A stretch of DNA of 64,000 bases from an uncultured Methanoregulaceae archaeon (GTDB taxonomy: Archaea > Halobacteriota > Methanomicrobia > Methanomicrobiales > Methanospirillaceae), in the NCBI GenBank assembly GCA_963701095.1, contig OY969564.1, positions 2,272,001-2,336,000 on the forward strand, given 5' to 3'. The notes beneath the pieces are model-generated. The model ran no database searches. It was given only the letters and a program-made list of their open reading frames with translations, and was not told the DNA's origin. Positions 42,818-45,671 of the stretch are shown piece by piece; position 1 is the stretch's first letter, and each line of letters begins with the position of its first letter. Position numbers and translations under genes: made by a program.

Positions 42818-44335
42818 TCATTCCCTGCTGGTCAGGTTGATCGCGTTTACCAGTGCGTCGACCGAGGCGAGTACGATATCGTCGCCGCTGCCGCTTGCAT
42901 CATAGATCTTTCCATGTTCATCTGCGACAGCTATAGTGACATGGCATATCGCATCCGAACCCCCGCTTATCGCTTCGATATGGAACTCGGTCAGCTGGAT
43001 CTGCGCCGGGATGATCCCGAGAATGGCTTTTAGGGCAGCATCTACAGGGCCGTTTCCTACACTGGAGAAGACATGTTCGCACCCGTCGACCTGGGCCCGG
43101 ACGCTTGCGGTGGGAATGACGTGGTTACCTGTCATGATGGCGATATCTTCGAGCGTGAGTACCTTTTTCCCTGCACCCGTGCCCATGACACTTCCGGCGA
43201 TTTCGTAGAGGTCAGCGTCGGTAATACGTTTACCTTTGCTTGCGATTGCCTTGACCCTCTCGACAATGATATCGAGCTGTGCATCATCAGGACCGATATG
43301 GGCATCAGCGAGTGTCTGCCTGACAGCGTGCCGGCCGACATGTTTCCCTAGGGTTAGTCTCCGCCGGTGCCCGACCATCTCTGGAGTCATGATGCCGGGT
43401 TCAAAGGTATCAGATCGCTTGAGGACGCCCTGTGTGTGGATCCCGCTTTCGTGCGAGAAAACGTTTTCTCCGACCACGGGTTGGGTGGGGGGGATGCCAA
43501 TTCCCGAGAACCGGGAGATGAGACGCGAGGTCTCAACGAGGCGTTCTTTTTTAATCCCGGTGTTGACACCGTAGATCGATTCGAGGATCATGACGGTCTG
43601 GGCGAGGTCGGCGTTACCGGCACGTTCGCCTAATCCGTTGATGGTGACCTGGACCTGGGATGCCCCGGCTTCGACCGCCGCGACGGTGTTTGCAACCGCG
43701 AGGCCAAAGTCGTTGTGGCAGTGGACGTCAAGAGGGCAGTCTACGTCGTGTGCAAGCCTTGTCATGAGTGCCTTCATCCCTGAAGGGGCGATGACACCGA
43801 CAGTATCCGGGATGTTAATGATGGTTGCTCCGGCCCTGCTTGCAGCCCGGCAGACTTCGACCAGGTAGTCGGGTTCTGTCCGGGTTGCGTCCATGGGCGA
43901 GAACATGCACTTTTTGACATGTTTTCTCGCGTACCTGATGATTTCGTCCGTTATCTCAAGAACCTGTTCCCGGGTCTTGTTGATAGTGTTTTCACGCTGG
44001 ATGTCTGATGTAGGAATAAACACGTGGATCATGTCGACGTCGCAGTCGATGCAGGCATCAACATCGGCTTTAACAGATCTGGCAAGTCCGCAGACGTTGG
44101 CCTCTAACCCGAGCTTTTTGATAGCAGTGACGGTCTCTTTTTCCGCAGCCGACGACGCAGGGAACCCTGCTTCGATGGAATGGACACCGATGGCTGAGAG
44201 CTGTCGGGCAATTTCGATCTTCTGTTCAAAGGTGAATGCTATCCCCGGGGTCTGTTCTCCATCCCGGAGCGTTGTGTCAAAAACGGTCACGTCTTCATGC
44301 GCACGGCTGTCGGTGAAGAAGACGATCCCCCGCAA
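42818..44335 (-). CDS. 2-isopropylmalate/citramalate synthase (LeuA/CimA family); start uncertain
   Basis: DTTLRDGEQ, HCHNDFG, GERAGN, HESGIH, C-terminal regulatory domain GNGPVDAA. Confidence 0.93.
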   Translation of the reverse strand: MRGIVFFTDSRAHEDVTVFDTTLRDGEQTPGIAFTFEQKIEIARQLSAIGVHSIEAGFPASSAAEKETVTAIKKLGLEANVCGLARSVKADVDACIDCDVDMIHVFIPTSDIQRENTINKTREQVLEITDEIIRYARKHVKKCMFSPMDATRTEPDYLVEVCRAASRAGATIINIPDTVGVIAPSGMKALMTRLAHDVDCPLDVHCHNDFGLAVANTVAAVEAGASQVQVTINGLGERAGNADLAQTVMILESIYGVNTGIKKERLVETSRLISRFSGIGIPPTQPVVGENVFSHESGIHTQGVLKRSDTFEPGIMTPEMVGHRRRLTLGKHVGRHAVRQTLADAHIGPDDAQLDIIVERVKAIASKGKRITDADLYEIAGSVMGTGAGKKVLTLEDIAIMTGNHVIPTASVRAQVDGCEHVFSSVGNGPVDAALKAILGIIPAQIQLTEFHIEAISGGSDAICHVTIAVADEHGKIYDASGSGDDIVLASVDALVNAINLTSRE

Positions 44336-44351
44336 AATCCTTGCGAGCCAT
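44295..44351 (-). other. 18-codon upstream ORF (MARKDFAGDRLLHRQPCA) overlapping the LeuA/CimA start, with tandem CTT-CTT Leu codons
   Basis: ATG 44351-44349 about 24 nt downstream of a TTTAAATA box; TGA at 44297-44295; main ORF is in the +1 frame. Confidence 0.55.
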
Positions 44352-44487
44352 GGTTATCCCTATACGTTCCCGGATTATTTAAAACGGTTACTGCACCAGG
44401 TTTCTTCTTTGGTTTTTCGCCAGAAAAACGAACTTGGGCACTGCGATATGTTTAATACGAAACTACCCCTACATTATTAGGCAGTGC

Positions 44488-44593
44488 CCCGCCTTAACTC
44501 AGCCTGGTAGAGTGCGCGGCTGTAGTATGGTTTGCCGGTATCGGCAACTGCGCGGCTACCGCGATGTCCCCGGTCCGAATCCGGGAGGCGGGA
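44488..44593 (+). tRNA. tRNA-Tyr(GTA) with an intron at 37/38 (about 44526-44557)
   Basis: CCCGCCT acceptor/AGGCGGG; CGCGG-CTGTAG[intron]A-CCGCG; intron hairpin TTGCCG-GTAT-CGGCAA. Confidence 0.9.
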
Positions 44594-44608
44594 TATACTG
44601 TATCAAAT

Positions 44609-44681
44609 GCCCAGGTAGTGTAGCGGCCTATCATGATTGCCTGTCACGCAATCGACTCGGATTCGAATTCCGACCTGGGCG
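44609..44681 (+). tRNA. tRNA-Asp(GTC)
   Basis: GCCCAGG...ATTGC-CTGTCAC-GCAAT...TTCGAAT...CCTGGGCG. Confidence 0.95.
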
Positions 44682-44724
44682 TAATCCATTTCTCGCAATT
44701 TTTCGATTTTTCGGGTGTATTTTT

Positions 44725-45007: not shown

Positions 45008-45165
45008 ATACCAATCTGCAGGATGTATCTATGCCAAAAGAAATGGTATTGGAGAATAATTATGGATGAACCGGGGGATAAATGTCGGTGTGGCAATATG
45101 GCCTCACGGTGGAGTGGGTTATTACGCCAAAGAATACCATGCATCCTGAAAAGCAACAGTCTCCC

Positions 45166-45671
45166 ATGAAAAACATCATTCTCATTGGCATGCCCGGTGC
45201 AGGGAAGAGCACCGTCGGGGTTATTCTTGCAAAGATGCTCGGGATGACCTTTGTTGATACCGATATTGCGATCCAGGAACGTGCCGGCCGGCTCCTGCAG
45301 GAGATTATCAATATGGATGGACCAGATGCGTTTCTCGCGATCGAAGAGAAGACAATTCTCTCCCTTCATTACCATCATTGCGTTATCGCCACCGGGGGAA
45401 GTGTTGTTTTTTCAAAAACGGCGATGGACTGGCTGAAGCAGGATAGCGTGATCGTGTACCTGAAGATCTCCTGCGAGGACATGATCAAAAGGCTCAGGAA
45501 CATCACGACCCGGGTGTTGTCCTGATCCCAGGACAGAGCCTTCCGGCTATGTATCATCAGAGGGTTCCTCTGTACGAGCAGTATGCCGATATCACAATCG
45601 ACTGCGCAGACGAGGATTTTGAAGAGGTGGTGGGGAAGGTGATTCGGGAGCTCGCTGTGAAAAAGTTTTGA
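45166..45671 (+). CDS. aroK: Bacterial-type shikimate kinase (frameshift near 45512)
   Basis: IILIGMPGAGKSTVG, DTD, IATGGSVV; tail R.PLYEQYADITIDC in the next frame. Confidence 0.88.

Follow-up and report, generated by a model that had tools for sequence, protein, structure and literature searches.

Introduction

The bacterial prfB gene, which encodes release factor 2, is autoregulated by a +1 frameshift at CUU UGA C with a Shine-Dalgarno (SD)-like element upstream, and the yeast elements Ty1, ABP140, and EST3 undergo a +1 frameshift at CUU AGG C. Bacterial biosynthetic genes can also be governed by leader-peptide attenuators, such as leuL, ilvL, thrL, trpL, and hisL, and Gallant and Lindsley reportedly observed frameshifting at hungry codons in starved Escherichia coli (cited in PMC8211752 and PMC5009743). 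We know of no leader-peptide control that has been shown in archaea. Here, we analyze the 5' region of leuA on the minus strand of a 64,000-nucleotide (nt) stretch of DNA (the window; assembly GCA_963701095.1, contig OY969564.1, positions 2,272,001 to 2,336,000) from an uncultured Methanoregulaceae archaeon. On balance, we favor a leucine-sensing programmed +1 ribosomal frameshift as the route by which leuA of this Methanoregula is expressed, a reading that rests on comparison of sequences.

The passages of one article that deal with hungry-codon frameshifting leave its natural use open (PMC5009743). In its passages on frameshifting, a 2021 review of archaeal recoding gives Saccharolobus solfataricus fucA1 as the only case of -1 programmed ribosomal frameshifting in Archaea, mentions a suspected Mg-chelatase case, and lists a +1 event only for a halovirus (PMC8211752). 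Like leuA here, fucA1 is a cellular archaeal gene requiring recoding, but it involves a -1 shift on A-AAA-AAT in the middle of the gene, occurs in few strains, and has no known sensing role. We searched the literature for a frameshift or leader described at leuA or cimA in archaea and found none. Term searches in the main text and part of the supplements of three ribosome-profiling papers (PMC11456600, PMC13663744, and PMC7261190) returned no mention of leuA or frameshifting; their other supplements may list leader open reading frames (ORFs). The peptide string RDRFL was not found in 12 of the 14 supplementary files of the Methanosarcina mazei paper (PMC11456600), nor RVLPGH in part of one supplementary file of the Haloferax volcanii paper (PMC7261190), and both absences are uninformative.

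Results

Upstream of leuA, the TATA box TTTAAATA (44383-44376, minus strand, as for all leuA coordinates given here) is followed, after 24 nt, by an ATG (44351-44349), which we propose to be the true initiation codon of leuA. This ATG opens a leader ORF (44351-44295) of 18 codons plus a stop ending at 44295, which reads ATG GCT CGC AAG GAT TTT GCG GGG GAT CGT CTT CTT CAC CGA CAG CCG TGC GCA TGA and whose predicted product without a shift is MARKDFAGDRLLHRQPCA. The synthase frame is the +1 frame relative to this leader. It is open from 44353, with a long ORF at 44335-42818, and carries the catalytic motif DTTLRDGEQ; before that motif, it offers only a TTG (44335-44333) and a GTG 12 nt before the D codon. 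Public pipelines use the TTG as a start (MRGIVFF...), and identical or near-identical Methanoregula proteins are publicly annotated as 505 or 506 amino acids (aa), beginning with MRGIVFF or MLRGIVFF. The encoded protein is LeuA type, scoring 676.7 bits against a cutoff of 517 with NF002085 over residues 10 to 502, and PF00682 (HMGL-like) and PF08502 (LeuA_dimer, the C-terminal regulatory domain) are publicly annotated for an identical protein.

Within the leader, CTT CTT C occupies 44321-44315, 5 nt past a G-run at 44331-44327. The first CTT (codon 11, 44321-44319) is the predicted slippery codon in the ribosomal P site, and the second (codon 12, 44318-44316) is the predicted sensor, which would stand in the A site at the moment of slippage. 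They are the two Leu codons of this leader; orthologous leaders have one or two. The element GGGGGATC (44331-44324) is complementary to the 3' end of 16S rRNA (GGAUCACCUCCU), making it a candidate SD-like stimulator 2 to 5 nt before the slippery codon. The postslip synthase frame, from TTC to the stop (44320-42818), is supported by the long ORF, the profile score, and the public domain annotation. This layout had been described in the initial annotation, and each element, from the TATA box, the ATG, and the 18-codon ORF to the tandem CUU-CUU behind a G-run and a synthase frame with only TTG and GTG before the catalytic motif, proved to be present.

These features suggest the following sequence of events. 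A leaderless mRNA would begin at the ATG at 44351, and a ribosome initiating at this 5' AUG would read the leader frame for 11 codons, placing peptidyl-tRNA-Leu(GAG) on CUU with the second Leu codon in the A site. With ample charged Leu-tRNA, this codon would be read and the leader stop reached, so that an 18-residue peptide would be made but no enzyme. Under scarcity, the A site would stay empty, allowing the P-site tRNA to re-pair one base downstream on UUC; Phe-tRNA would then read the next UUC, and translation would continue in the synthase frame. The predicted trans-frame product consists of 11 leader residues and 499 synthase-frame residues (MARKDFAGDRL-FTDS...; 510 aa). Any tRNA that reads NUU (anticodon GAN) would retain pairing at positions 2 and 3 on UUY, and position 1 would also be kept by a Phe tRNA or, through a G-U pair, by a Leu tRNA. 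The G-rich GGGGGAUC just upstream may assist by pairing with the 16S 3' end. Leu tRNAs in this genome have the anticodons GAG (two copies), UAG, CAG (two copies), UAA, and CAA, and a Phe tRNA (GAA) is also present.

Of the systems introduced above, prfB resembles this locus in several respects. There, too, peptidyl-tRNA-Leu on a CUU in a short 5' frame slips by +1 when the A site is slow, a G-rich 16S-complementary element lies upstream, and the supply of the factor reading the A-site codon sets the full-length yield. prfB requires a CUU with a re-pairing base (UUY in the +1 frame), and CTT CTT C supplies both here. The two differ in the A site, which holds a stop codon in prfB and a sense Leu codon here, and in the sensed molecule, which would be charged tRNA rather than the gene's own product. 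Moreover, this host is archaeal and its mRNA is predicted to be leaderless, the G-run lies 5 nt from the site instead of 3, and the SD-like element is not universal. As in Ty1, a tRNA-Leu would leave CUU while a slow sense codon waits in the A site, without any need for downstream structure. The Ty1 codon, however, is served by a permanently rare tRNA, whereas CTT is common here and would be slow only if leucine is short, which would turn the site into a sensor.

With the attenuators, this locus shares a very short leader ORF that precedes a biosynthetic gene and contains codons for the amino acid that its pathway makes (Leu in LeuA leaders and, as shown below, Ile in CimA leaders). Attenuators act through transcription termination by alternative hairpins, of which we found none, and use a run of sensor codons, whereas there are one or two here, in a leader that the enzyme overlaps in a different reading frame. 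Finally, hungry-codon frameshifting likewise involves a P-site tRNA that slips when the A-site aminoacyl-tRNA is limiting, but what was an error of laboratory starvation would here be a conserved regulatory device.

To compare orthologues, LeuA 5' regions were drawn from 40 relatives, 200 genomes of the order, and 100 genomes of the phylum, with the best loci and 80 short regions being fetched; a draw made at the class level contributed genomes of this order only. Identical 167-nt keys were collapsed, one locus (L018) was dropped as lying too near a contig end, and five (L086 to L090) were dropped as weak paralog matches. This left 135 distinct regions, namely, 134 of the LeuA type and one neighboring paralog. 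Lineages are referred to by our labels (f for families and g for genera): genus g1 is Methanoregula, the family of MKRTVFF proteins is that of Methanoculleus, and f7 includes Methanosarcina, Methanolobus, Methanococcoides, and Methanohalophilus. The detector asked for an ATG-started ORF in which a Leu codon comes directly after TTT or CTT, with the +1 frame open to DTTLRDGEQ.

The full layout was recognized in 118 of the 134 regions of the LeuA type, covering 44 genera in several classes (Methanomicrobiales, Methanosarcinaceae, and other families of the phylum), in counts obtained with a detector written after the pattern had been seen and from related sequences without phylogenetic correction. 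As a control, the detector was run on 1,025 long ORFs of this genome and fired in 8 of them when placed at random inside the ORF and in 18 when placed 75 nt past the in-frame stop (0.8 to 1.8%). All 118 regions have the leader ATG, which the detector itself demands, and a CTT or TTT at the slippery position, and the next codon is always Leu. Leaders run from 6 to about 35 codons, and their stop falls 0 to 9 codons past the Leu codon, coming directly after it in two lineages (L074 and L118). Among the shortest are ATG AGG GAT CGT TTT TTA TAA (MRDRFL*) and MGNRFLHC*. The orthologue comparison that the initial annotation had called for thus turned out in its favor, with the out-of-frame ATG, slippery NTT, and following Leu codon retained in 44 genera. 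An in-frame natural variant, fusing the two frames into the trans-frame product, was not seen among the regions examined.

Most of the 16 LeuA-type regions lacking the layout have an ordinary ATG instead, either a few codons before the motif (seven in f8) or without the N-terminal extension (three in f13, two in f15, and one in f17). Outside the detector's definition, a leader is present in two f14 regions with GTT CTA and in one g25 region with ATT CTA. In all, ATT or GTT followed by Leu was found in eight regions beyond the 118, five of which are haloarchaeal-type genes (L277 to L281; f11, f18, f19, and f21). These leuA homologues are short (about 400 aa), are 46 to 51% identical, and have a leader-frame ATG; four of the five lack a synthase-frame start, and all five, each from a different genus, share an identical 18-nt stretch, CGAGTTCTTCCAGGGCAC (CGA GTT CTT CCA GGG CAC). 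A pattern scan of genome contigs matched at least 120 loci; among the matches listed, seven are leuA leaders (Methanohalophilus, Methanococcoides, Methanolobus, Methanosarcina, and three others), and the rest are chance bacterial matches.

In 78 of the 118 regions, a TATA-like box starts 30 to 32 nt before the leader ATG, and in Methanosarcinaceae, f9, f10, and f12 it starts at -36 to -40. This spacing predicts a leaderless or near-leaderless mRNA whose first AUG is that of the leader; here, the transcript is predicted to begin no more than about 2 nt from the ATG at 44351. When the 16 nt before the slippery codon were paired with the 16S 3' end, the mean energy was -7.8 kcal/mol versus -5.0 in background windows, and the GGGGGATC duplex of this window reached -10.9 kcal/mol, beyond the background 5th percentile. 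Pairing at or below that percentile occurs in 13 of the 44 genera. An Rfam search over 44000-44700 matched only a tRNA.

Substitutions at the site reveal which of the two frames is selected. In all 118 regions, the slippery codon is followed by Leu, which takes five synonymous forms, and the overlapping synthase residue varies with them: CTT in 27 genera (F), TTA in 17 (Y), CTC in 3 (S), CTA in 2 (Y), and TTG in 1 (W). Since this variation is synonymous in the leader frame and nonsynonymous in the synthase frame, selection acts on the leader-frame codon. A second comparison used the 86 sequences (29 genera) in which the synthase frame reads F-F, F-S, or F-L, where the third base of the first Phe codon sets the leader codon, C making it Leu and T making it Phe. 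This Phe codon is TTC in all 86, in each of which TTT would destroy the leader Leu. As controls, TTT is found at the next Phe in 14 of 74 sequences (11 of 26 genera) and, at the Phe lying three bases ahead of the D codon, in 54 of 86 (15 of 29 genera); genome-wide, TTT makes up 53% of Phe codons. Where the synthase frame reads F-Y or F-W, so that either Phe codon leaves Leu intact, TTT occurs 28 times and TTC 4 times. TTT-TTY occurs in none of the 17 sequences rejected by the detector.

In all 118 regions, the synthase codon before this Phe has C or T as its third base, which yields the leader CTT or TTT, while the third base of a control Val/Ile position is A in 23, G in 15, T in 11, and C in 8. 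Among the regions bearing the extension, this rule has three exceptions, in f14 and g25. Within Methanoregula (45 distinct sequences), CTCGCAAGGATnTTGnGGGGGATnGnnnTCTT is almost invariant, and synthase third positions are invariant at 7 of 13 codons in the overlap compared with 0 of 20 and 3 of 20 downstream. Of the outcomes that the initial annotation had regarded as fatal to its proposal, the two that sequences can show were not seen: no relative has the ATG in the synthase frame, and no synonymous synthase change destroys the site. We consider it almost certain that a conserved, translated sensor leader overlaps leuA.

The start codons of the synthase frame bear on whether LeuA is reached from this leader by a shift or starts independently. 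Upstream of the site, that frame has no ATG, GTG, or TTG in 48 of the 118 regions, and in 36 of them it has none anywhere before DTTLRDGEQ; in 17 of the 44 genera, no sequence has any such start before the motif. In Methanosarcinaceae and f12, the synthase frame is even closed by a TGA right before GGG ATC (cTGAGGGATC or aTGAGGGATC), and the position of the TTG at 44335 is occupied in other genera by CTG, AAG, ACG, ACA, CGA, or the stop TGA. The sampled Methanoculleus genes mostly lack a canonical synthase-frame start, and their annotated N termini are several (MKRTVFF and MHPGTLKRTVFF). In M. mazei, leuA (MM_1284) is annotated from a synthase-frame ATG 4 nt past the leader ATG (PMC11456600 Source Data), and the RefSeq start codon of its CimA-type gene (MM_0671) is ATC; both annotated starts look like pipeline work-arounds for a missing start.

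In the alternative of a regulatory leader ORF without a frameshift, the leader would yield a separate peptide and LeuA would start independently (at the TTG at 44335 here and at ATG, GTG, or near-cognates elsewhere), with a pause at the Leu codon altering access to the start. A TTG or ATG at this position, the one used by public pipelines, is kept in all 45 Methanoregula sequences, so ordinary initiation could serve in this window. Furthermore, the synthase codon before R/W-G-I is often ATG, TTG, GTG, CTG, ACG, or AAG in Methanomicrobiales, and the three synthase codons before the site (G-I-V/A) vary conservatively while the leader residues vary radically (D/N/Y and R/C), which looks as if the synthase frame were translated upstream of the site. 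This pattern may instead reflect a nucleotide constraint on GGGGAUC or some synthase-frame initiation in Methanomicrobiales. An independent start is difficult to reconcile with the 36 regions devoid of one and with the TGA in Methanosarcinaceae and f12, and the synthase-frame ATG TAC of M. mazei is ATG TAA in other Methanosarcina. The TTG of this window lies 16 nt inside the predicted leaderless transcript without an upstream SD, and a ribosome stalled at the Leu codon would presumably cover it, giving the wrong regulatory sign. We therefore consider an independent start unlikely, and LeuA is probably made by a +1 shift from the leader.

Two further candidates were rejected. The conserved-looking synthase G-I prompted us to consider a slip farther upstream, at GGG-G or AGG-G, which fails as a general site since Methanoculleus, family f4, and the haloarchaeal genes lack such a run. 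The GTG 12 nt before the D codon was discarded as a start, as this V/I position carries GTG, GTA, GTT, GTC, ATA, ATC, or ATT.

A natural control is provided by the CimA-type paralog, which encodes citramalate synthase, the enzyme of the first step to isoleucine in methanogens. This 40 to 46% identical paralog was examined in 41 regions (including loci L291 to L330). In 31, TTT-ATT or TTT-ATC is found together with a leader-frame ATG, mostly exactly four codons upstream, as in MSDCFIW*, MSDCFICR*, MRDCFIC*, MSECFIC*, and MERRNRFILRC*. Five regions of Methanosarcinaceae have ATT-ATT, with a leader-frame ATG in two and only GTG or TTG in three, so that NTT precedes an Ile codon in 36 of the 41 regions. 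Four lack such a leader: the paralog of this genome (L288), that of a close relative (L317), one f15 region, and one f10 region. Changes of ATT to ATC are silent in the leader and F to S in the synthase, and changes of GAT to GAG or GAA are D to E in the leader and I to S or N in the synthase. The leader frame is therefore the conserved one here, the opposite of the G-I-V/A codons of LeuA. The predicted sensor codon tracks the pathway end product, being Leu in leuA and Ile in cimA. In Methanomicrobiales CimA regions, inspection by eye also revealed an SD-like GGTGAT or GGTGGA 6 to 8 nt before the leader ATG.

These data bear on a second alternative, a constitutive +1 frameshift, in which slippage at a fixed rate sets low expression or is a frozen accident, with no response to leucine. 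Its anatomy would be the same as that of a leucine-sensing shift, and as CTT is a common codon, hunger is not built into the site. However, the A-site Leu has been kept through five synonymous codons read by different tRNAs, and its counterpart in the isoleucine-pathway paralog is Ile; a fixed-rate site would have no reason to track the end product. We regard a constitutive shift as quite improbable. Based on the identity of the sensor codon, we infer a dependence on leucine and lean toward a shift that reports leucine supply, with rather less assurance than we attach to the shift itself. The corresponding proposal of the initial annotation is thus supported, at the level of sequence, by the synonymous Leu variation, the lineages without starts, and the Ile-coded paralog; the G-run that it named as a stimulator turned out to be common and not universal.

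The CimA-type paralog of this genome lies outside the window (G000:C1:63414-64880, within the L288 region, G000:C1:61914-66380). It and L317 have an in-frame ATG and a different N terminus, and a third paralog, of the AksA type (L289), has an ordinary SD and ATG. The in-frame N terminus of L288 contains TTCGCAAGGAAATTGCGC, which is similar to CTCGCAAGGATTTTGCGG in the leuA leader (44347-44330), and the synthase-frame GIVFFTDS resembles VTVFDTT just before the catalytic motif. These likenesses hint at an origin of the leader in a duplicated 5' end of the gene. In family f4 and genus g25 (G032, G027, G037, and G064), leuA and the CimA-type gene are divergent neighbors 230 to 300 bp apart, each with its own leader.

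The frame offset between leader and synthase is genuine. Logan contigs from a separate sample (run X2) extend over 44277-44352 and 44323-44496 without an indel and with a single substitution (44312), and contigs of relatives at 90 to 95% identity in two RNA libraries (X10 and X15) span 44150-44500 without an indel in 44150-44357. The latter contigs reach across the promoter too and hence may derive from DNA. Moreover, the offset is identical in every orthologue examined. The initial annotation had cautioned that 1-nt indels in this assembly might have created the offset, a concern that these data contradict. An artifact or nontranslational repair, whether a 1-nt assembly error (indels were reported, and the genome's assembly, a single contig, is 86% complete by marker genes), a pseudogene (the gene is otherwise intact and scores above its family cutoff), or RNA polymerase slippage restoring the frame (conceivable at the runs of five to six T's in Methanosarcinaceae and rejected since the Methanomicrobiales sites, CTTCTTC and TTTCTTC, lack a homopolymer of sufficient length), is extremely improbable.

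Discussion

Our comparison indicates that the leader of leuA is kept for its codons, and a slip at the NTT before the sensor codon would connect the leader with a synthase frame that often lacks a start of its own. For the phylum as a whole (Methanomicrobiales, Methanosarcinales, and haloarchaea), we cautiously and only by a little prefer the view that LeuA and CimA are made only upon a +1 slip inside a leader of 5 to 12 codons begun at the first AUG of the mRNA, the slip occurring at NUU ahead of a sensor codon that specifies the amino acid made by the pathway.

Besides the way in which the counts were obtained, the synthase-frame starts of Methanoregula, and the conservative G-I-V/A codons, several observations weigh against a leucine-sensing shift. 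The SD-like element is absent from two f5 genera of the 44, and RNAalifold across the 44 genera found no consensus structure at or after the site (mean minimum free energy z-score of 0.13, below -2 in 2 genera). The slip codon is poorer in some lineages (ATT, GTT, or CAT with a site shifted by one codon), and one CimA region, in genus g8, reads TTT CTT, with Leu in place of Ile. Finally, CTT is the commonest Leu codon of this genome (32%), which means that the site would not be constitutively slow and that its slowness would be conditional on leucine supply.

If the proposed mechanism holds, it would constitute a direct, protein-free feedback from amino acid supply to enzyme synthesis in archaea, an ancient archaeal counterpart of bacterial attenuation that acts through the ribosome alone. 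Cellular archaeal genes would thereby gain their first conserved +1 programmed frameshift, and hungry-codon frameshifting would for the first time be found in natural use as an amino acid sensor, which would make a conserved regulatory device of what was seen as a laboratory error. A frameshift leader would account for the start-less leuA and cimA genes of many methanogens and haloarchaea and for the ad hoc starts assigned by pipelines. The proposal is testable in organisms with genetic systems and existing ribosome profiling, namely, Methanosarcina acetivorans, M. mazei, and H. volcanii, and the natural swap of Leu for Ile between the two leaders suggests portable, codon-programmable amino acid sensors.

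Two neighboring features deserve mention. The leuA promoter faces away from a tRNA-Asp(GTC) gene (44608-44682, plus strand), which is transcribed divergently and lies some 225 nt upstream of the leuA TATA box. Farther on, a P-loop kinase-like ORF (GMPGAGKSTVG; 45082-45671, plus strand) ends at 45525, and its apparent C-terminal part resumes at 45549 in another frame, a break that may be a real split or a 1-nt assembly indel.

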